From IMG/VR virus record IMGVR_UViG_2547132270_000009: a DNA stretch of 8,580 nucleotides; one strand, given 5' to 3'. The notes below the pieces were generated by a model. That model ran no database searches. It worked only from the letters and a program-made list of their open reading frames with translations, and was not told the origin of the DNA. Origin of the DNA: a virus. Lineage: Duplodnaviria; Heunggongvirae; Uroviricota; Caudoviricetes. The position numbers and the translations under genes are program-made. Below, piece by piece: positions 1 through 8,580 of this stretch. Position 1 is the first letter of the stretch. Each line of letters opens with the position of its first letter.

Positions 1-153
1 CGCCGTTGTCATGAATGCGCTTATCAGTTCAGGATGTGCTTTCGCGTATCCTTCTCCCGCGTTGCGATCGATGATTTTTATCGCCACTCTCAGCCAGTGT
101 TCTGTCAAATCAAGGGCGTGAGATTGTGGTTTTTTTTCGTGCTTCGTTGTCAC
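1..153 (-). CDS. hypothetical protein, 5' portion only (gene runs off the left edge of the window)
   Basis: Minus-strand frame opens with GTG at 153, preceded by a GAGGT Shine-Dalgarno 7 nt upstream, and stays open to position 1 (about 51 codons: VTTKHEKKPQSHALDLTEHWLRVAIKIIDRNAGEGYAKAHPELISAFMTTA). Composition is protein-like. No family recognised; start codon choice is uncertain. Confidence 0.3.
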   Translation of the reverse strand, partial: MTTKHEKKPQSHALDLTEHWLRVAIKIIDRNAGEGYAKAHPELISAFMTTA

Positions 154-204
154 GGGCTTTACCTCACAGCAATAAAATAAAATTTTTGCATTTTAACCCT
201 TCAC

Positions 205-426
205 CTGTTCACCTTTTGAGATTTTCCCTTTTTATTCATGATGTTAAGGGGTGAACAGTTTCACAAAAACTATTCACCAACTGTTCACCACTGTTCACCC
301 TTAAGCTCAATAAACAATCAAAAAGGTGAACAGTGAATAGTTTGGTGAACAGTTCATAAATAACTGTTCACCCTATAATATACTGATATAAAAGACATTT
401 ATGATAGGGTGAACAGTGGTGAACAG
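205..426. repeat. iteron array, putative origin of replication of the element (nine 9-bp GGTGAACAG/CTGTTCACC repeats around an AT-rich tract)
   Basis: Exact 9-mers seen directly: forward GGTGAACAG at 250-258, 325-333, 344-352, 408-416, 418-426; reverse CTGTTCACC at 205-213, 281-289, 291-299, 364-372; degenerate copies at 273-279 and 334-340. An AT-rich block sits at 373-405. The array lies immediately 3' of the helicase gene. The core TGTTCACC matches, as far as I recall, the P4 type I iteron bound by the alpha protein. Confidence 0.75.
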
Positions 427-439
427 TTATTCCATAAGT

Positions 440-2245
440 TTAATTTTTTCCATCGTCATTTGTGACCGATGCACATGATGGCATCCAGTCTTCTGAATCC
501 TCTGTAAGGGTCACATTTGAACGCAAACCGTGCTTCGTTTTCCGTTTCATATACTCCCTGCCATATTCCGCCATTGCCCCCGGCATATCTTTACCGAAGC
601 GCGTCAGTGTTACAGGTTTACCGAATCCGTGTGCCCTCATATATGCCAGATAGGCGTGATAAAGATACCTGCGCGGACTGAACGGAATAATTTCGGCATT
701 ACCCACTAACAGACCATCACACATTACCGACGACATGAGATAGCCGCAGAAGTCCACCAGCGAATCGCCCTCGCGTTTTATCACCAGTGCTTCTTCTGAT
801 TTCTGCTGCTCATACAGCAGGCGTTTAGCTTCGTCCTGGTCAGAAAAACGAGTAAGCAGGTGGCGAATCACAACCGCCAGCTCTCCTTCTATTTTTTCTG
901 CCAGCATGGGGTCGCGTTCGTTTTCCGGTACAACCTCCGAAAAATTGAATATCACCCGACGACGTGAGATCCCCCCGCTGCGGTCACTGAATGACATGGC
1001 GTTATTGTTCACCGCCAGCACGACCGCCTGAATGCGTGTTGAGTAGGGGGCTTTATGCTTCGGGTCGATTGCCACCTTGTCACCGCCTGTAATGGCCTTA
1101 ATTCCTGCGCCATCACCAGCGTAGCGGGTCATATCCGGCATGATAATCAGCGAAAATCCAACCACTAACGCGCGTTCCCTGGCATCTTCCAGCGCCTTCA
1201 TGCTTGCCGATACCGTGTTGGCCTTACCCGCCAGCATGGTGCAAATCTCCGCCATTACGCTTTTACCGCTTCCACCCGGCCCCGTTACCTCAAGAAATAA
1301 CTGCCAGTCGTATCGGTTCGCCAGCACCATGAATAACGCCGCCAGTACGCGATCCGCTTTACGGTCATTCTCAGCCACCGAACGGCGCAACCATTTCCAG
1401 AAATTCGGCGCATGCGTTGCCAGCGTTTCCCCCTCTGCTGGCGGGCTGAACGGTAATTCACTGGCAATTAACAGCCAGTCGTTTTTGTCATGCTCCCGAA
1501 AATCGCCTGTCCGGGTATCAAAAACACCGTTACTGAATCCAATCAGGTTACGGGCGGTATTCCCCATTACGGGCAAACTTAACTTCATTGTATCGACCGC
1601 CGATTTGATGGCGTTCTGCGAATAACTGATCTCCGCATCAATAAAAATCTGCGCCATAGCCCGCTGTAACTCTTTATCCTGTACCGGCTCCCATACAACG
1701 CCGTTGTAGTGGTGAACGGTGTCAGAGTCCGCATTGATTGCCAGTTCACCGCCATAACGTGCCAGGAGAACTTCGCCGCGCTGGCTTGCTCCCATCTGGT
1801 TAAGCGCCAGTGGTGCGGCGCTGTCTTCTGTTTTTTTCTTAACAGGAAGCTGAATAACCAGACCATCAGAAAGATTCTGGCGCTCACGCTCCAGATATTC
1901 GTGCCAGTTCTCCCGCTTCTGGCTGTGCATTCCCTCAGGGTAATAATTCGCATCCCGTACACCTGCCACCGCCAGCTTTTGCCCGATGGCATTAATATTT
2001 GACGGCTTGATGTGGCCTGCCTTGTACAGCCGGACACAATAGCGACCATCGTCGATAATTTTCAGGCCTGCCAGTTCGTCAAGCTGGCTGTCTCCCAGCC
2101 ATACAGGCGGAACATTGTCGCCAGCAAGTCGCCCGTCCTGCTCCTGCCATTGTTTCGCGTGCGCCCAGGCATCACTACCCGCAAAAATAATGACTTCGGT
2201 CATTTTGTCGTGCGGCTGTTTTTTCAGATTCGGTGCCAGTTTCAT
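440..2245 (-). CDS. replication protein, SF3-family helicase / primase-like (P4 alpha-like or PICI Pri-Rep-like), 601 aa
   Basis: 601-aa ORF with AGGGG Shine-Dalgarno 6 nt before the ATG at 2245. Walker A VTGPGGSGKS, Walker B-like SLIIMPDM, SF3 motif C VVLAVNNN and an arginine finger region SRRRVIFNF are all visible in the translation. Adjacent iteron array fits an initiator and its origin. Confidence 0.85.
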   Translation of the reverse strand: MKLAPNLKKQPHDKMTEVIIFAGSDAWAHAKQWQEQDGRLAGDNVPPVWLGDSQLDELAGLKIIDDGRYCVRLYKAGHIKPSNINAIGQKLAVAGVRDANYYPEGMHSQKRENWHEYLERERQNLSDGLVIQLPVKKKTEDSAAPLALNQMGASQRGEVLLARYGGELAINADSDTVHHYNGVVWEPVQDKELQRAMAQIFIDAEISYSQNAIKSAVDTMKLSLPVMGNTARNLIGFSNGVFDTRTGDFREHDKNDWLLIASELPFSPPAEGETLATHAPNFWKWLRRSVAENDRKADRVLAALFMVLANRYDWQLFLEVTGPGGSGKSVMAEICTMLAGKANTVSASMKALEDARERALVVGFSLIIMPDMTRYAGDGAGIKAITGGDKVAIDPKHKAPYSTRIQAVVLAVNNNAMSFSDRSGGISRRRVIFNFSEVVPENERDPMLAEKIEGELAVVIRHLLTRFSDQDEAKRLLYEQQKSEEALVIKREGDSLVDFCGYLMSSVMCDGLLVGNAEIIPFSPRRYLYHAYLAYMRAHGFGKPVTLTRFGKDMPGAMAEYGREYMKRKTKHGLRSNVTLTEDSEDWMPSCASVTNDDGKN

Positions 2246-2541
2246 TTTTTGCCCCTGAATGCGTTAATCATGCTTTTCATTTTCTGAATATTTGCCCGTG
2301 CCTTTGCGTTGCTGGTGGGCTGTTTGCGTGGTGTGGCCTGTATCAGTGAAAAATCACGCCGGAACTGATAAACAGGCATCACGCAGTCGTAGCCGTACCC
2401 ATCACGGCGGTAAGTAACGCACCGTCCGGCAATACTTTTAATCGTTACCGTGCCACCGTAGTTATCCCGGAAAATATCGCCGGGGCGGATTTCAGGCCGA
2501 GCGGGGCCGCTGGCAGTAAAGCCAGAATTTTTCTTTTTCAT
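2242..2541 (-). CDS. hypothetical small protein (99 aa), translationally coupled to the helicase gene
   Basis: ATG at 2541; its stop overlaps the helicase start as ATGA (2242-2245). Basic C-terminus. Fourth of five small genes in the operon. No family recognised. Confidence 0.55.
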   Translation of the reverse strand: MKKKNSGFTASGPARPEIRPGDIFRDNYGGTVTIKSIAGRCVTYRRDGYGYDCVMPVYQFRRDFSLIQATPRKQPTSNAKARANIQKMKSMINAFRGKK

Positions 2542-2972: not shown

Positions 2973-3205
2973 AACCCCCCCCCATTTTCACAATCAGCAA
3001 TCAGGATAGCCCTGGCCTCATTCAGTGCCATATCAGCGGTAAGCTGTGCGTAAGCCAGCGAATGCGGGATTATCGCCCCTGTATATTCCGTCTCTCTGGT
3101 AATGTGTTTTTCTGCGGTTGCTGCCGTGCATGAAATATCAATCAGCGCGTGCATCAGCGTTTTGATGGCTTCGGCGGCTGCGCCCGGACGGGTGTTATTG
3201 CACAT
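2945..3205 (-). CDS. hypothetical small protein (86 aa as read); reads through the G9 tract and stops shortly after
   Basis: ATG at 3205 with AGGGGGTG Shine-Dalgarno; overlaps the Icd-like stop by 8 nt (ATGTGCAATAA). Ends CENGGGLCVMIVLIP. The first ATG of the raw ORF (3247) is rejected because it overlaps the Icd-like gene. Confidence 0.45.
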   Translation of the reverse strand: MCNNTRPGAAAEAIKTLMHALIDISCTAATAEKHITRETEYTGAIIPHSLAYAQLTADMALNEARAILIADCENGGGLCVMIVLIP

Positions 3206-3395
3206 GATGCACCCCCTGACGAATACGGGCGGCGAATACAGCGACACAACCGGACGGGCAACGGTTACGCGCTTCGCGTTCTGTCCAGGCGGTCACGTGG
3301 ATAATTTGAGAATCTCCGGCACTCAGTGCCAGAAAACGCCACACAAAGGCGGTTTGTGTGTGCGCTAGTCGTGGGGTATGCTGTCTTACAGCCAT
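3195..3395 (-). CDS. Icd-like small protein (P4 kil/icd-type host cell division inhibitor family), 66 aa
   Basis: ATG at 3395 with GAGGTAA Shine-Dalgarno 5 nt upstream. Translation MAVRQHTPRLAHTQTAFVWRFLALSAGDSQIIHVTAWTEREARNRCPSGCVAVFAARIRQGVHHVQ fits the F-W-R-F ... EREAR ... AARI pattern I recall for Icd-like proteins of P4-like elements. First gene of the minus-strand operon. Confidence 0.6.
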   Translation of the reverse strand: MAVRQHTPRLAHTQTAFVWRFLALSAGDSQIIHVTAWTEREARNRCPSGCVAVFAARIRQGVHHVQ

Positions 3396-3496
3396 AATCG
3401 TTACCTCATTTAACGGTTTGGTTAGAAGCCCCGTTACTGCTCCAACAGTGCGGGGCTTCGTCGTTTCAATTGCTGAATTGCATGTATCAGCCCTTG

Positions 3497-3550
3497 TGGT
3501 ATTCAGATTACATTTTGGTGAATACCAGTTCAAGTCTTTTTTGGTATTCA
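3497..3550. promoter_or_regulatory. divergent promoter/operator region: three TGGTATTCA sites and a candidate sigma70 promoter for the minus-strand operon
   Basis: TGGTATTCA at 3497-3505 (direct), 3519-3527 (inverted) and 3542-3550 (direct); the first two form an inverted repeat with a 13-bp spacer. On the minus strand, -35 TTGAAC (plus 3528-3533), 17-bp spacer, -10 TAATCT (plus 3505-3510) overlap these sites. Confidence 0.4.
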
Positions 3551-3594
3551 CTTTTGTATTACACTGCATCCCGTTATTAATCGGAGGTGCAAAC

Positions 3595-3900
3595 ATGTCC
3601 ACGAGTTCTGTTAACAATAAGTCACAGCAACTGAATGCCAGATTTCCACATGAAGTAGTGAGTGGCATTGAGGCATCCCTACAGCCTGGGGAAACTAAAG
3701 CGAATTTTATAGTTACGGCTGTACGCGGTGAAATCGCCCGCCGCCAAGCAGAAGGAAGAGGAGAAAATCCCCTGGTTTCTTCGCTCGATGCACTGGCGCA
3801 GGTGGAAAAAATCGGTGTCAAAGCAGCCGAGGAGATCGGGCAACTCGTCACCGTCGCGCGTGAAGAACTCCAGCGCCGCAAGGCCAAAGAACAGGAGTAG
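3595..3900 (+). CDS. ribbon-helix-helix DNA-binding protein, YlcI/YnfO (DUF3950)-like; candidate regulator of the element
   Basis: ATG at 3595 with GGAGGTG Shine-Dalgarno; 101 aa. N-terminal LNARFPHEVVSGIEASL...KANFIVTAVRGEIARR fits the RFP...NF...RR pattern of YlcI/YnfO-type proteins; charged helical C-terminus. It is the only + strand gene inside the element, divergent from the operon. Confidence 0.7.
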   Translation: MSTSSVNNKSQQLNARFPHEVVSGIEASLQPGETKANFIVTAVRGEIARRQAEGRGENPLVSSLDALAQVEKIGVKAAEEIGQLVTVAREELQRRKAKEQE

Positions 3901-4394
3901 TTGATCAGCACCGGGCGCCCAGAAAAAATCGTATCAGTCGCGCCACCAGCAAAATTTTTTGCTTTCCGGACAGCGTGGCCAACGACATTTTGCAGCAAAA
4001 TATTCTGCATTTCTGGCGTGCTGTAGTAACGGTGATCAGCGCCTTCACATTGAACGAACTTGTCGCTAAAATTCACCCATATAGCAAACATCGCGGTGCT
4101 GTAGGTAATTCGTTCACAAAGGCGCTCCGGCAACGGGGCGCTTTTTGTTTTTATTAGTTTGTAGAAACCTGACTCAGAGATAATGCTCATATTCTGATTG
4201 CCGTCAGGGGTGTAAGTTAAATTTACTCCCTTTTTATCATCAAACATCTGCAACGCTCTGGCGTTAACAATATTGGTTTCACTCCCGCCAGTAAGGCCGG
4301 AAATAACCGGAATAATTTCGGCAAAATTTTGCAGATTCTGTTTTTCAGGACGAACGAAGCCCCGCCCTTGTTCGGGAGAATATCCAGTATTCAT
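3900..4394 (-). CDS. Bro-N-like (antirepressor-type) protein; 3' end unresolved, possibly a pseudogene
   Basis: ATG at 4394. The first 120 or so residues contain Bro-N-like blocks (FDDKKGV...NMSIISESGFYKLIKTKSAPLPERL). The frame has no stop until 3195, running antisense through the RHH gene and into the Icd-like gene, so the real C-terminus cannot be set from sequence; 3900 is an approximate boundary. Both other minus frames hit stops near 3903-3930. Confidence 0.35.
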
Positions 4395-4446
4395 GGTTAG
4401 ATCTCTGTATTAGTGGATGGGTGGCGGCTGTGTGCCGCCAGCCTGA

Positions 4447-4635
4447 TTAGTGAACTGCCTCGCAGCTTTCCTTCCATGCCAGAACTTCGGATAAAGACCA
4501 GCCAACGGAACGACCGCCGAGCTTACGCCGTGATGGGAATTGTCCGGTTTTTTCCAGGCGGTACCGACATGAACGGCTCAGGCCTGTAAGTTGCTGACAT
4601 TCTTTTTCACGTATAAAGCGATCTGTGCTTAACAC
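4447..4635 (-). CDS. alpA: AlpA-family phage regulatory protein (excisionase/activator-like), 62 aa
   Basis: GTG at 4635 preceded by an AGGGGGA Shine-Dalgarno. Translation ...ECQQLTGLSRSCRYRLEKTGQFPSRRKLGGRSVGWSLSEVLAWKE fits the AlpA helix-turn-helix pattern. Upstream in-frame ATGs (up to 4803) lack a ribosome-binding site. Confidence 0.8.
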   Translation of the reverse strand: MLSTDRFIREKECQQLTGLSRSCRYRLEKTGQFPSRRKLGGRSVGWSLSEVLAWKESCEAVH

Positions 4636-4930
4636 AATTCCCCCTTTGATATTTCTTAAAGAGTTATTTGGTGTCCTATTGTGTTGTGGTGCGTCGGATT
4701 GTGTCAGGGTGTTTATGGAATGGCAAACACTGGCGGCGGTCATTTTACAGAAGTGTGGTAATGAGAATAAAAACTCTTTTAATTCATTGTGGTGCAAAGG
4801 CATAAAATTCTGTTTTTACGCCTTTTTTACATGTTTTTAAGAGTGATTCGCCAATGTACAAAAAGCCAGTAAAACGACTGAAAATCAACTTTTTAGGGTG
4901 TCAGTCAGATGTTAATCAAGTTTGTTCCAG

Positions 4931-5002: not shown

Positions 5003-6250
5003 TTATATTTCTCTGGCTATTGGCAGTGTGGTTACGTTTTTGTGAGTACCCGCCAGTATCTCTAACCGCTCTGTCCACATGTCCAGCGCATTACGTTTCG
5101 CATCGAGATAACGGGAGTGGTTATAGACTCGCTGCATCCCTGGCATCTGGTGAGCGGTGAGTTGTTCGACAATATGCGGATCCACGCCTAAATCGTTCAG
5201 CATCGTGGTAAACGTGCGCCGTATATCGTGTAGTGACCAGTGCGGATGGTTTAATTTTTTGTGCATGAATCTGCCGTATTGCGACACACTGGCTTCCTGT
5301 TTCAGTTCCCCGAGTAATAGCCCTGTGTGTCTGTTCTGCTCCACCAGCTGCGTGACGAACGGTAAAATGCTTTCCGGTATTGGCCTGAATATGGCGACCT
5401 TCGTTTTGCTGTGCTCTTTCGGTACTGTCCAGAGCATTTCCTTAAAATCCCACTCCCTGATCTCCGATAATCTCAGTTCTCCGGTTCGGCAGCCGAACAC
5501 AATCAGGAGGCGGATTAGTGCGCTGTAGTAGGGCGGGAATATTTTTTTATCCAGCGCCTGTAATAATTCGCCAAGTTCTTTGTTGCTCAGCACGCGTTCG
5601 CTTATGCCTGGTTTTTTGCCAACGTCCACCACGTTAAGATCATCCAGAACGTTACTGACTGCGTAGCGACGTTTACGGCAGAACTTAAGCGCCTGTTTAC
5701 ACGCCTGCATCATGTGACCAGACGTTACAGGGGATTTTTTGCGTATCCGGTCAAAACAGGCCAGCCAGTGACGTAACTCGCATTTATCCAGTGGCATATT
5801 GCCAATATGCTGTATGACGTGATTATTCAGGCGGCTTTTCAGGCATACGTAATCGACACGGTTTTCCTTTACGTGCATTTCCAGCCAGTAGCTGATCGCA
5901 TCACCCACCGTTACCGGCTTTAGTGCTTCCTGTATGGAGTAATTAAGCTCATGGCGTGGATTTTTTCCTTCTGCCAGCCATGCGCGACACTGTGCCGCTT
6001 TTTCCCTGGCTGCTTTCAGGCTCAGATCAGGATAATTTCCCAGCTTCAGGCGTTCCGGTGATACCTGGCGTCCAGCTCCTGCCCTGTAGGTGAAATACCA
6101 GGTTAACAAGCCGCTGGTGGAATGCCTGACGCTCAGGTTTCCACCGTCATTAAGAAATGTGGTTTTTGGGGCTGGTGTGCCGTTGATTTTTCTTAGCTGT
6201 GTATCGCTCAGTTTGTTAAGTGCTCTGCTCATAATTTTGAATCCGGTCAT
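5003..6250 (-). CDS. int: tyrosine-type site-specific integrase, P4-like family
   Basis: About 415 aa. N-terminal arm-binding domain (DGGNLSVRHSTSGLLTWYFTYRAG...LGNYPDLSLKAAREKA) resembles P4-type integrases; C-terminal catalytic motifs HDIRRTF and YNHSRYLDAKR (tyrosine nucleophile). Start is ATG at 6250 or GTG at 6253; no strong Shine-Dalgarno for either. Confidence 0.93.
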   Translation of the reverse strand: MTGFKIMSRALNKLSDTQLRKINGTPAPKTTFLNDGGNLSVRHSTSGLLTWYFTYRAGAGRQVSPERLKLGNYPDLSLKAAREKAAQCRAWLAEGKNPRHELNYSIQEALKPVTVGDAISYWLEMHVKENRVDYVCLKSRLNNHVIQHIGNMPLDKCELRHWLACFDRIRKKSPVTSGHMMQACKQALKFCRKRRYAVSNVLDDLNVVDVGKKPGISERVLSNKELGELLQALDKKIFPPYYSALIRLLIVFGCRTGELRLSEIREWDFKEMLWTVPKEHSKTKVAIFRPIPESILPFVTQLVEQNRHTGLLLGELKQEASVSQYGRFMHKKLNHPHWSLHDIRRTFTTMLNDLGVDPHIVEQLTAHQMPGMQRVYNHSRYLDAKRNALDMWTERLEILAGTHKNVTTLPIAREI

Positions 6251-6254
6251 CACA

Positions 6255-6368
6255 ATTAACTACACCATTAACTACACCGATCATTGCACAAGGGGGTACA
6301 ACGTGGAACAAGTTGGAACAAGAAAATTGCAATGAGCTTAAAAATCAAAAACATAATGAACAACGTGG
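6255..6368. repeat. direct repeats between the integrase start and the junction; candidate arm-type recombinase binding sites
   Basis: ATTAACTACACC twice in tandem (6255-6266, 6267-6278); TGGAACAAG twice at 10-bp spacing (6304-6312, 6314-6322); ACAACGTGG twice (6298-6306, 6360-6368). Confidence 0.45.
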
Positions 6369-6397
6369 CACATTATGAAACAGCAAAAAACACTAAT

Positions 6398-6577
6398 TTA
6401 TAAAAATCCGCTATTGATAATGGCGCTGCGTACGCGATCACGCGCTTCCTTTACTGTCGTTTCTGGTAAGCCCACCATTGTTAATCCGGGTAGACCTTTG
6501 CTGATATGTACCTCAACAGTGATCGGCGGAGCATTTACTCCCAGAGCTGCGCGAGTATGAACAATTGATAGTGACAT
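6398..6577 (-). pseudogene. yifB: yifB/comM (Mg-chelatase-like AAA+ ATPase) 5' fragment, truncated after about 59 codons by the inserted element
   Basis: ATG at 6577 with GGAGGA Shine-Dalgarno. Translation MSLSIVHTRAALGVNAPPITVEVHISKGLPGLTMVGLPETTVKEARDRVRSAIINSG matches the YifB/ComM N-terminus from memory, then ends FL-stop at 6398-6400 where the full-length protein (about 500 aa) should continue. The junction is estimated at about 6400-6412. Confidence 0.8.
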
Positions 6578-6849
6578 AAGTCCTCCTTGAGTCACCATTA
6601 TGAACACAATCATTCGCTGCTGTAGCCAGCAAAATTACGACTTTTAGCGGCTGATTCCTGTTTATTTTTGCAATCGATATTGAGTTGTATTGGTGATGGA
6701 ATGATGCTCGCAAAAATGTTGCGGACAAATATTGAGCTGTTTTGTGGAGAACAAGAAACATACGGAAATTGAATTTTTTTCACTCTTCTTTTTTTATATA
6801 AAAAACAATGATCTCTATCGAAATTATTATGTGCATCATAAAAATCGGC

Positions 6850-6895
6850 CAAAAAATATCTTGTGTTATTCGCAAAATCTATGGTACCTCTTTAG
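6850..6895 (+). promoter_or_regulatory. ilvL-ilvG operon promoter region
   Basis: Candidate -35 TTGTGT (6861-6866) and -10-like TATGGT (6880-6885) 40-70 bp upstream of ilvL, but the spacing between them is only about 13 bp, so exact element assignment is uncertain. AT-rich upstream sequence (6760-6850) fits UP/IHF-type elements. Confidence 0.4.
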
Positions 6896-6929
6896 ACATT
6901 CCTTCGAACAAGATGCAAGAAAAGACAAA

Positions 6930-7028
6930 ATGACAGCCCTTCTACGAGTGATTAGCCTGGTCGTGATTAGCGTGGTGGTGATTATTATCCCACCGTGCGG
7001 GGCTGCACTTGGACGAGGAAAGGCTTAG
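6930..7028 (+). CDS. ilvL: ilvGMEDA operon leader peptide (32 aa)
   Basis: Translation MTALLRVISLVVISVVVIIIPPCGAALGRGKA, rich in Ile/Val/Leu control codons, recognised as the ilvL leader peptide; TAG stop at 7026-7028. Confidence 0.95.
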   Translation: MTALLRVISLVVISVVVIIIPPCGAALGRGKA

Positions 7029-7050
7029 AGATCAAGCCTTAACGAACTAA

Positions 7051-7085
7051 GACCCCCGCACCGAAAGGTCCGGGGGTTTTTTTTG
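7051..7085 (+). terminator. ilv attenuator, rho-independent terminator
   Basis: GC-rich stem ACCCCCG (7052-7058) pairing with CGGGGGT (7071-7077) around a GAAA loop, followed by a T-run (7077-7084), between ilvL and ilvX/ilvG. Confidence 0.9.
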
Positions 7086-7114
7086 ACCTTAAAAACATAA
7101 CCGAGGAGCAGGCA

Positions 7115-7165
7115 ATGAATAACAGCACAAAATTCTGTTTCTCAAGATTCAGGACGGGGAACTAA
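7115..7165 (+). CDS. ilvX: small protein IlvX (16 aa)
   Basis: ATG at 7115 after GAGGAGCAGG; translation [16 protein letters not shown] then TAA, matching the 16-aa IlvX small protein as I recall it; ends 2 nt before ilvG. Confidence 0.8.
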
Positions 7166-7167
7166 CT

Positions 7168-8580
7168 ATGAATGGCGCACAGTGGGTGGTACATGCGTTG
7201 CGGGCACAGGATGTGAACACCGTTTTCGGTTATCCGGGAGGCGCAATTATGCCGGTTTACGATGCATTGTATGACGGCGGCGTGGAACACTTGCTGTGCC
7301 GACATGAGCAGGGCGCGGCAATGGCGGCAATTGGCTATGCCCGTGCTACCGGCAAAACCGGCGTATGTATCGCCACGTCTGGTCCGGGTGCAACCAACCT
7401 GATAACCGGGCTTGCGGACGCGCTGTTAGATTCCATCCCTGTCGTTGCCATCACCGGTCAGGTGTCCGCACCGTTCATCGGCACCGACGCATTTCAGGAA
7501 GTGGATGTCCTGGGATTGTCATTAGCCTGTACCAAACACAGCTTCCTGGTACAGTCGCTGGAAGAGTTGCCACGCATCATGGCTGAAGCATTCGACGTTG
7601 CCCGCTCAGGCCGTCCTGGTCCGGTTCTGGTCGATATCCCAAAAGATATCCAGTTAGCCATCGGCGATCTGGAACCGTGGTTCACCACCGTTGAAAACGA
7701 AGTAACTTTTCCACATGCCGAAGTCGAGCAAGCGCGCCAGATGCTGGCAAAAGCGCAAAAACCGATGCTGTATGTTGGCGGCGGCGTAGGTATGGCACAG
7801 GCAGTTCCGGCTTTGCGTGAATTTCTCGCTGCCACAAAAATGCCTGCCACCTGCACGCTGAAAGGGCTGGGCGCAGTTGAAGCGGATTATCCGTACTATC
7901 TGGGGATGCTTGGGATGCACGGCACCAAAGCGGCGAACTTTGCGGTGCAGGAATGTGACCTGCTGATCGCTGTGGGCGCACGTTTTGATGACCGGGTAAC
8001 CGGCAAACTAAACACCTTCGCACCGCATGCCAGCGTTATCCATATGGATATCGACCCGGCAGAAATGAACAAGCTGCGTCAGGCGCATGTGGCATTACTG
8101 GGTGATTTAAATGCTCTGTTACCGGCATTACAGCAGCCGTTAAATATCAATGACTGGCAGCAGCACTGCGCGCAGCTGTGTAGTGAACATGCCTGGCGTT
8201 ACGACCATCCCGGAGACGCTATCTATGCGCCGTTGTTGTTAAAACAACTGTCGGATCGTAAACCTGCGGATTGCGTTGTGACCACAGATGTGGGGCAGCA
8301 CCAGATGTGGGCCGCGCAGCACATCGCCCACACTCGCCCGGAAAATTTCATCACTTCAAGCGGCTTAGGCACTATGGGTTTTGGTTTACCGGCGGCGGTT
8401 GGCGCACAAGTCGCACGACCGAACGATACCGTCGTTTGTATCTCTGGTGACGGCTCTTTCATGATGAATGTGCAAGAGCTGGGCACCGTAAAACGCAAGC
8501 AGTTACCGTTGAAAATCGTCTTACTCGATAACCAACGGTTAGGGATGGTTCGACAATGGCAGCAACTGTTTTTCCTGGAA
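7168..8580 (+). CDS. ilvG: acetolactate synthase II (AHAS II) large subunit, N-terminal 471 codons; continues past the window
   Basis: Translation [81 protein letters not shown]... is a thiamine-diphosphate enzyme recognised as IlvG. Frame is open from 7168 to the window end with no internal stop. Confidence 0.96.

Follow-up and report, generated by a model that had tools for sequence, protein, structure and literature searches.

The iteron field and its layout

The DNA examined here, 8,580 bp of the viral record IMGVR_UViG_2547132270_000009 from IMG/VR (Caudoviricetes; the whole stretch is called the window throughout), carries a phage satellite that, judged by its gene content and gene order, is a Gram-negative phage-inducible chromosomal island (PICI) of the EcCICFT073 type, an ordinary kind in Escherichia coli. 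Our subject is its candidate replication origin, a dense field of short repeats (iterons) that lies directly 3' of a gene coding for a 601-amino-acid (aa) initiator-helicase of the Pri-Rep type. The string GGTGAACAG occurs nine times in the window, with all copies confined to positions 205-426 and divided between the + strand (five) and the - strand (four), against a chance expectation of 0.06; as none of 200 dinucleotide-preserving shuffles reached nine copies, chance and low sequence complexity are ruled out as the source of the repeats. An earlier note on this DNA had described nine exact iterons in both orientations directly 3' of the helicase gene, and this description is confirmed. Three degenerate copies, recovered in register with the conserved layout described below, bring the total to 12 sites. 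The resulting field (197-426) begins 14 nt past the initiator stop codon (440-442, - strand) and falls within a 286-bp gap, which is bounded on its other side by a GTG start codon (151-153, - strand) placed from the annotation of the near-identical locus L001, an E. coli island that is 95% identical to ours and was available at full length.

The 12 sites resolve into two inverted half-sites of six iterons each (Table 1). Moving outward from a centre at about 312, each half-site presents a triple of iterons, 13 bp, a single inverted iteron, an A+T-rich spacer of 35 or 36 bp and finally a pair, with site offsets of 0/7/19/39/83/93 in the gene-proximal half-site and 0/10/21/41/86/94 in the distal one. 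This dyad is confirmed by an imperfect inverted repeat of 53 nt (I1), whose arms at 228-280 and 342-394 are centred near 311. The base composition of the interval is equally distinctive: region 180-440 is 67% A+T versus 51% in the whole window, and the GC content of the intergenic gap is about 30-37% versus about 50% in its flanks. The single 30-bp A+T-rich tract of the earlier note stands in so far as A+T-rich DNA is present, the tract meant being probably the spacer of the proximal half-site, but there are three such gaps rather than one. Among relatives of this locus the first large gap past the initiator gene measures 35 nt in 23 of the 36 analysed, with a mean A+T content of 79%, and the central gap is more variable than the half-site spacers, ranging from 22 to 37 nt and from 56 to 81% A+T. 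Neither a promoter-like nor a terminator-like site was found in 100-520, and no tRNA gene was found at the site; likewise, no second iteron cluster was detected in the window, in L001 or in the published PICIs EcCIRM13514 and EcCI224, the only further occurrences being single stray 8-mers.

Table 1. Coordinates of the iteron field, the initiator gene and neighbouring genes in the window
Feature	Position	Strand	Basis or remarks
Intergenic region, predicted replication origin	154-439	none	between the Pri-Rep stop codon and the GTG start of the next gene
Exact GGTGAACAG sites	250, 325, 344, 408, 418	+	string search of the whole window
Exact GGTGAACAG sites	205, 281, 291, 364	-	string search of the whole window
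Degenerate iteron GGTGAAGGG	197-205		mismatch-tolerant search
Degenerate iteron GGTGAATAG	270-278		mismatch-tolerant search
Degenerate iteron AGTGAATAG	332-340		mismatch-tolerant search
Gene-proximal half-site	325-426	+	triple 325, 332 (degenerate), 344; inverted iteron 364; 35-bp spacer; pair 408, 418
Distal half-site	197-299	-	triple 291, 281, 270 (degenerate); inverted iteron 250; 36-bp spacer; pair 205, 197 (degenerate)
A+T-rich spacer of proximal half-site	373-407		35 bp, 80% A+T
Central A+T-rich gap between half-sites	300-324		25 bp, 76% A+T
A+T-rich spacer of distal half-site	214-249		36 bp, 72% A+T
Initiator-helicase ('Pri-Rep', DNA primase family protein), 601 aa	440-2245	-	open reading frame list, Pfam, homology
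N-terminal PICI-specific module, aa 1-122	1880-2245	-	in place of the Zn-ribbon/Toprim primase of P4 alpha
D5_N and superfamily 3 (SF3; P-loop) helicase core, aa 158-446	908-1774	-	Pfam
C-terminal winged-helix origin-binding domain, aa 493-589	479-769	-	match to PDB 1KA8; Pfam Pox_D5
Proposed specificity-determining wing segment, aa 565-580 (YMKRKTKHGLRSNVTL)	506-553	-	covariation with iteron type
Post-origin gene, 5' part, running off the window	1-153	-	matches 'hypothetical protein' L001 8908-9153 and the EcCICFT073 post-origin open reading frame
DUF4222 gene	2242-2541	-	Pfam PF13973, E=4e-24; same position in EcCICFT073 and other PICIs
AlpA-family regulator (PICI hallmark)	4447-4803	-	Pfam Phage_AlpA, E=1e-17; 96% identical to EcCICFT073 alpA product
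Tyrosine integrase, at island end by yifB/comM remnant and ilvLXG	5003-6253	-	Pfam Arm-DNA-bind_3 and Phage_integrase; L001 annotation

The initiator and its relationship to P4 alpha

In Pfam searches the 601-aa protein matches D5_N (aa 158-287), DUF5906, which holds the SF3 P-loop (aa 321-429), and, over the C-terminal binding domain, Pox_D5. The Walker A motif of its helicase core, GPGGSGKS, is invariant in our alignment of relatives (A1), and the core also matches PriRep5 of the Staphylococcus aureus pathogenicity island SaPI5 (PDB 7OLA; E=3e-10). Across helicase and origin-binding domain together, aa 134-596 are 49% identical to aa 313-776 of the alpha protein of P4 (E=4e-161), and the binding domain by itself retrieves the solved structure of the P4 alpha origin-binding domain (PDB 1KA8; phmmer E=2.4e-24). 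With 49% identity to alpha over this span and 48% overall to the Pri-Rep of EcCICFT073, the protein is an initiator of the alpha/Rep type, as the earlier note had supposed.

The two proteins part company at the N-terminus, where P4 alpha has a Zn-ribbon and a Toprim primase domain with the EGYATA motif. The window protein lacks this motif, an absence already remarked in the earlier note, and Pfam finds in it neither Zn_Ribbon_Prim nor Toprim_3, both of which match P4 alpha. Instead, it begins with a module of about 122 aa that is, by sequence identity, common to other E. coli PICI initiators, with an identity of about 70% to the Pri-Rep N-terminus of EcCICFT073 and of 86% to that of the otherwise unrelated RepA/AAA_25-type helicase of EcCI042. 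The module is modelled with confidence as an alpha/beta domain (predicted local distance difference test, pLDDT, 85.7) in which, on our reading of the model, Ala22-Gly23 and Tyr74-Lys75 occupy the positions of the Toprim Glu and DxD residues. Based on these substitutions at the catalytic positions, together with an insignificant hhalign comparison against the primase domain of alpha (aa 1-312; probability 0.5%), we regard this region as a Toprim-like domain, probably one without catalytic activity.

The binding sites point to the same relationship. The P4 record NC_001609, on whose GenBank annotation the identity of the P4 iteron rests, labels the 8-mer TGTTCACC as 'ori type 1 repeat', and the core of the window iteron is identical to it; the earlier note had correctly named this core as the type I iteron of P4 ori and crr. 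A literature search with the bare iteron string returned primer sequences only. In NC_001609 six type 1 repeats lie in ori (9310-9413) and ten in crr (4291-4590). The six repeats of ori1, at offsets 0/10/21/42/86/96, have the spacing of one window half-site, and ori1 is colinear with both half-sites at 67-71% identity (71% for the proximal one), with conservation of the TTAAC beside the inverted iteron. The crr units retain the pair, the 35-bp spacer and the inverted iteron, beyond which they are divergent. P4 accordingly resembles the window in its iteron core, in the six-iteron spacing of ori1, in the wing motif of its initiator (see below) and in having iterons directly 3' of the initiator gene. 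It differs in that its sites are split between ori1, equivalent to one half-site and 4.4 kb away, and crr, made up of two direct 120-bp variant units, whereas the window has a single composite field. Based on these correspondences we take the window initiator and its sites to have the same DNA specificity as P4 alpha, namely for the type I iteron TGTTCACC. Since only 45 bp separate the alpha stop codon from crr, and iterons follow the alpha genes of Xenorhabdus and Photorhabdus likewise, the 3' position of the iterons is not specific to PICIs, contrary to the earlier note, which had read it as a mark of these islands. Homologues of P4 sid, delta, psu, epsilon and cnr were not found by tblastn in the window or in L001.

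In the part of the 2018 study of Gram-negative PICIs considered here (PMC6092414), the homology of Pri-Rep to P4 proteins is termed "distant" and the organisation of the PICI origin is said to be common to no other known bacterial replicon, and a survey of 2023 regards satellite primase-replicases as possibly analogous rather than homologous (PMC10085698). In light of these statements the link in specificity between P4 and PICIs appears not to have been made in the literature considered here.

Iteron classes and the wing segment

We then compared 85 loci, comprising 80 that encode relatives of the initiator together with the window and loci gathered earlier; 83 of these were typed and two remained untyped. 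At every analysable locus, the 8-mer found most often within 500 bp past the stop codon proved to be the iteron of a dyad architecture. Four iteron classes emerge, namely GGTGAACA (64 loci), GGTGGAGA (8), GGTAGACA/GGTAGATA (7) and GCGGACAG/GTGGACAG (4), and each of them includes relatives with the dyad immediately 3' of the gene. At 82 of the 83 typed loci, a segment of 16 residues near the end of the binding domain, aa 565-580, partitions with iteron type; the one exception has a frameshifted C-terminus. In the GGTGAACA class this segment has the form [ST]K-x-G-[ILM]-[RQ]-[ST]-N in 63 of 64 members (the frameshifted one again excepted), as opposed to DKGRxISN or KG[RV]xQTN in the GGTAGACA class, TKGN[MI]RSN in the GGTGGAGA class and ATRGRIQSN or SKGNYQSN in the GGACAG-type class of GCGGACAG/GTGGACAG, while RRYLYHAYLAYM and most other residues of the binding domain are invariant across the classes.

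Relatedness of the helicase domain does not run parallel to this division: the helicase domains of three loci (L008, L013 and L016) show 89-93% identity to that of the window, yet these loci possess GGTAGACA iterons and a different wing, and GGTGAACA iterons are kept at helicase-domain identities to the window as low as about 70% in the full-length alphas of Xenorhabdus and 52% in P4. Hence, iteron specificity appears to be set by the segment aa 565-580, and the tracking of iteron class by this segment supports cognate binding of initiator and iterons. Given the topology of winged-helix domains, in which the wing follows the recognition helix (PMC2777425), the segment would correspond to the beta-hairpin wing. 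The overall identity of the binding domain was also considered as a predictor of iteron class and failed, only the wing segment being predictive.

The GGTGAACA iterons occur with three different N-terminal architectures, which are the PICI module, a "SDALFSCxY" type of about 580 aa and the full Zn-ribbon/Toprim alpha; domain shuffling is therefore, on this comparison of sequences, routine in this helicase family. Proteins of the second type, which start with ...SDALFSC[LV]Y... and have the same helicase/binding core, were seen in Pectobacterium, Serratia, Yersinia, Rahnella, Pantoea and others (L014, L015 and L019-L033); their N-terminus has no match in Pfam and is found with all four iteron classes. 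The third type is present in several full-length copies per genome (about 813 aa, with EGYATA) in Xenorhabdus and Photorhabdus (L034-L083), with as many as five loci in X. ehlersii. P4-type iterons lie 3' of each of these genes in the dyad layout and not in the crr layout, and tblastn found no P4 sid, delta or psu near them.

These distributions bear on the possibility that the island is a recent recombinant, in which a PICI backbone acquired both origin and DNA-binding specificity from a P4-like satellite. Such an event would agree with the identity of iteron core and wing motif to those of P4, with the combination of a PICI-specific N-terminal module and an otherwise alpha-like protein, and with the reported paraphyly of Pri-Rep trees between satellite families (PMC10085698). 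Nevertheless, we consider it improbable. An identity of only 49% to P4 alpha gives no sign of a recent exchange with that phage, the P4 record is not among the six matches at the DNA level in the phage collection, and the helicase domain is about equally far from EcCICFT073 (46%) and P4 (52%). Moreover, as the P4-type iteron is present in 64 of the 85 relatives, with three N-terminal architectures and across Enterobacterales, it is better understood as an old and widespread allele than as a recent import. The suggestion in the earlier note of a mosaic joining P4-type replication specificity to a PICI-type backbone can thus be retained in part. The backbone is indeed that of a PICI, with the gene order of EcCICFT073 and all genes on the - strand, and mosaicism at the level of domains is real; however, such mosaicism is the norm of the family, and the window is no special mosaic, the P4-type class being the commonest of the four.

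Published islands and the spread of the origin

Two islands listed in Table S1 of Fillol-Salom et al. 2018 (PMC6092414), EcCIRM13514 (O145:H28 RM13514) and EcCI224 (Ecol_224), each have nine GGTGAACA sites directly 3' of a gene for a 'DNA primase family protein' of 606-608 aa. Their initiators agree with that of the window in N-terminal module, binding domain and wing motif (TKHGLRSN or TKEGVRSN), and their C-terminal sequences are near-identical to it. The islands differ in their integration at yicC-dinD and frmR-thiM, as against yifB/comM in the window, and in their accessory genes. Because both carry the P4-type origin, this class of element is already published. The seven other Table S1 PICIs that we checked have iterons other than those of the window: EcCICFT073, EcCIIHE3034 and EcCIATCC25922 have GGTAGACA iterons, and EcCI042, EcCI11128, EcCI11368.1 and EcCIDi14 combine a RepA/AAA_25 helicase with AAAGTGAGG or AAAGTGGGG iterons. 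In the latter four (L085, L087, L088 and L092) the iterons lie in the 200 bp after the gene, around A+T-rich DNA, indicating that the same origin logic is found in an unrelated helicase family.

EcCICFT073 is the prototype of the Gram-negative PICIs, and its replicon has been tested by experiment. It has the order int, alpA, Icd-like gene, DUF4222 gene, Pri-Rep gene, ori, post-ori open reading frame, ssb and capsid/decoration genes in common with our island, its Pri-Rep is related as given above, and its origin has the same dyad architecture of two times six sites directly 3' of the gene. However, its iterons are GGTAGACAG/GGTAGATA, its binding domain is only 33% identical and its wing reads VKGVTQTN. 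In this island rep with the adjacent ori maintains a plasmid, and mutation of either ori or rep abolishes maintenance (PMC6092414). More distantly, the SaPI Rep proteins and PriRep5 also have a C-terminal winged-helix domain and a homologous SF3 core, with 6-12 iterons just downstream of rep around A+T-rich DNA, but their iterons, only five or six nucleotides long, are unrelated in sequence, they belong to Gram-positive hosts, and no similarity extends beyond the helicase core. The winged-helix domain of the SaPI Reps recognises the iterons, and these proteins form hexamers, melt DNA independently of ATP and have 3'->5' polarity; one hexamer is proposed to sit on each side of the A+T-rich DNA (PMC9371898).

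Among 5426 complete E. coli genomes, window 150-760, which spans the origin and the part of the gene that codes for the binding domain, is present in 658 (12%, or about one in eight), its GGTAGACA-type counterpart from EcCICFT073 in 564, and the 3' end of P4 alpha with crr in 1081. An initiator 76% identical to that of the window, followed by the same P4-type dyad origin, was further observed in Klebsiella pneumoniae ATCC 13883 (L011) and in 'Escherichia phage vB_KppS-Ant' (L003; LR881103, 9938-11950). The latter is an induced 'phage' of 16.5 kb with genes for capsid, portal, head-tail connector and terminase and an annotated tail tape-measure gene, and otherwise resembles a capsid-forming PICI (cf-PICI); its possession of this origin implies that the origin class crosses satellite families.

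Proposed mode of action and its alternatives

Based on the cognate pairing of iterons and wing, the homology to P4 ori1 and the likeness to EcCICFT073, we propose that the intergenic region is very probably the vegetative replication origin of the island, served in cis by the initiator encoded beside it. Upon induction of the island the initiator would be made, and its C-terminal winged-helix domain would bind the 12 iterons of the GGTGAACAG type. Each half-site could then nucleate one SF3 helicase hexamer, with six binding domains on six iterons, and the A+T-rich spacers would melt. The most likely unwinding element would be the spacer of the gene-proximal half-site, which is the most conserved in length and composition. 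The two self-loaded hexamers, arranged either head-to-head or tail-to-tail, would move apart with 3'->5' polarity and give rise to bidirectional replication. As the initiator has no DnaG-type primase domain, primers would presumably come from the host primase or from an unrecognised activity of the N-terminal module.

Several points weigh against this proposal. Binding, melting and replication, as well as double-hexamer loading and the primer source, are inferred for the window allele, and the protein has no recognisable primase, which leaves the mechanism incomplete. A rule of six iterons per hexamer amounts for now to numerology, and 3 of the 12 sites are degenerate. The distal spacer of EcCICFT073 is 47% A+T and hence not A+T-rich.

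One alternative is that the field is equivalent to P4 crr, acting as a cis enhancer to which the initiator binds, with an ori1-like start situated elsewhere in the island. The field does occupy the position of crr, directly 3' of an alpha-like gene, and according to its annotation P4 uses two separated iteron regions. Yet both half-sites follow the six-iteron arrangement of P4 ori1 rather than that of a crr unit, none of the four islands searched has another iteron cluster that could act as the start, and in EcCICFT073 rep and the adjacent region are enough for plasmid maintenance (PMC6092414), all of which makes this alternative highly improbable. We give scarcely any credence to the view that the repeats serve chiefly as transcriptional operators instead of an origin, through which, for instance, pri-rep would be autoregulated or the ssb/capsid operon controlled, since, even though the field separates two co-directional gene blocks and initiator binding could affect read-through between them, no promoter-like or terminator-like site was found in 100-520, the layout and sequence of the region are homologous to P4 ori1 and to the functionally tested ori of EcCICFT073, and 12 sites in a dyad with conserved 35-bp A+T-rich spacers look like an origin.

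Other genes of the island

Apart from the initiator gene and the predicted origin, the window carries, all on the - strand and in the order seen in EcCICFT073, int, alpA, an open reading frame ending in an Icd-like domain, small open reading frames and the DUF4222 gene. The window ends just after the origin; in L001, which is inserted in yifB/comM beside ilvLXG, the region beyond it contains ssb, major capsid-like, decoration-like and helix-turn-helix genes and terS. The DUF4222 gene overlaps the start codon of the initiator gene by 4 nt in the window, as it does at L002 (6984-7304) and in all D5-type and RepA-type PICIs inspected, which suggests translational coupling. In P4 the corresponding position is taken by cnr, whose product regulates the DNA binding of alpha; the DUF4222 protein and Cnr are not similar in sequence.

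The open reading frame at 3195-4394 (- strand; 399 aa) combines weak matches to anti-repressors (Ant/BRO-like) near its N-terminus with a C-terminal Icd-like cell-division-inhibitor domain. At this position the closest E. coli islands carry no more than a stand-alone Icd-like gene (about 66 aa), so the longer reading frame may be a fusion or an insertion. The AlpA reading frame codes for 118 aa from its first ATG, as against 62 aa annotated in relatives, and the AlpA domain occupies aa 61-110; the true start is probably internal. The att site at yifB/comM, beside ilvL-ilvX-ilvG, is absent from the PICI table of 2018, and the chromosomal flank (about 6250-8580) is only 90-95% identical to most E. 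coli genomes, so that the DNA may come from an Escherichia other than E. coli or from a divergent lineage.

Implications for satellite replication

The origin in the window is itself nothing unusual: it is a standard PICI origin, its kind is known and common, and a sister allele has been functionally tested. What the comparison adds is that this PICI origin consists of two P4 ori1 modules, which contradicts the published claim of an organisation unique among known replicons and ties Pri-Rep and P4 alpha into one initiator family. The four natural iteron classes, each mapped to a winged-helix segment of about 16 residues, in turn offer a ready set for specificity swaps.

Furthermore, one specificity common to P4-like satellites and a class of PICIs makes replication cross-talk between satellites testable. 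Given that iteron and wing motif are the same, we tentatively raise the possibility, while regarding it as rather doubtful, that the initiators of P4-like satellites and of P4-type PICIs, along with those of cf-PICI-like elements such as vB_KppS-Ant, may cross-recognise each other's origins. If so, P4 alpha could bind or activate the PICI origin and, in the other direction, P4 ori and crr could be bound by the PICI initiator, with replicon interference, titration or cross-activation as the outcome when both satellites are in one cell. Co-residence of P4-like satellites and PICIs is reported to be under-represented in E. coli (PMC10085698), and cross-recognition, if it occurs, could be one mechanistic cause of this deficit. 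As a corollary, the dyad origin of PICIs and the split ori1 and crr of P4 would both have come from one ancestral six-iteron module.

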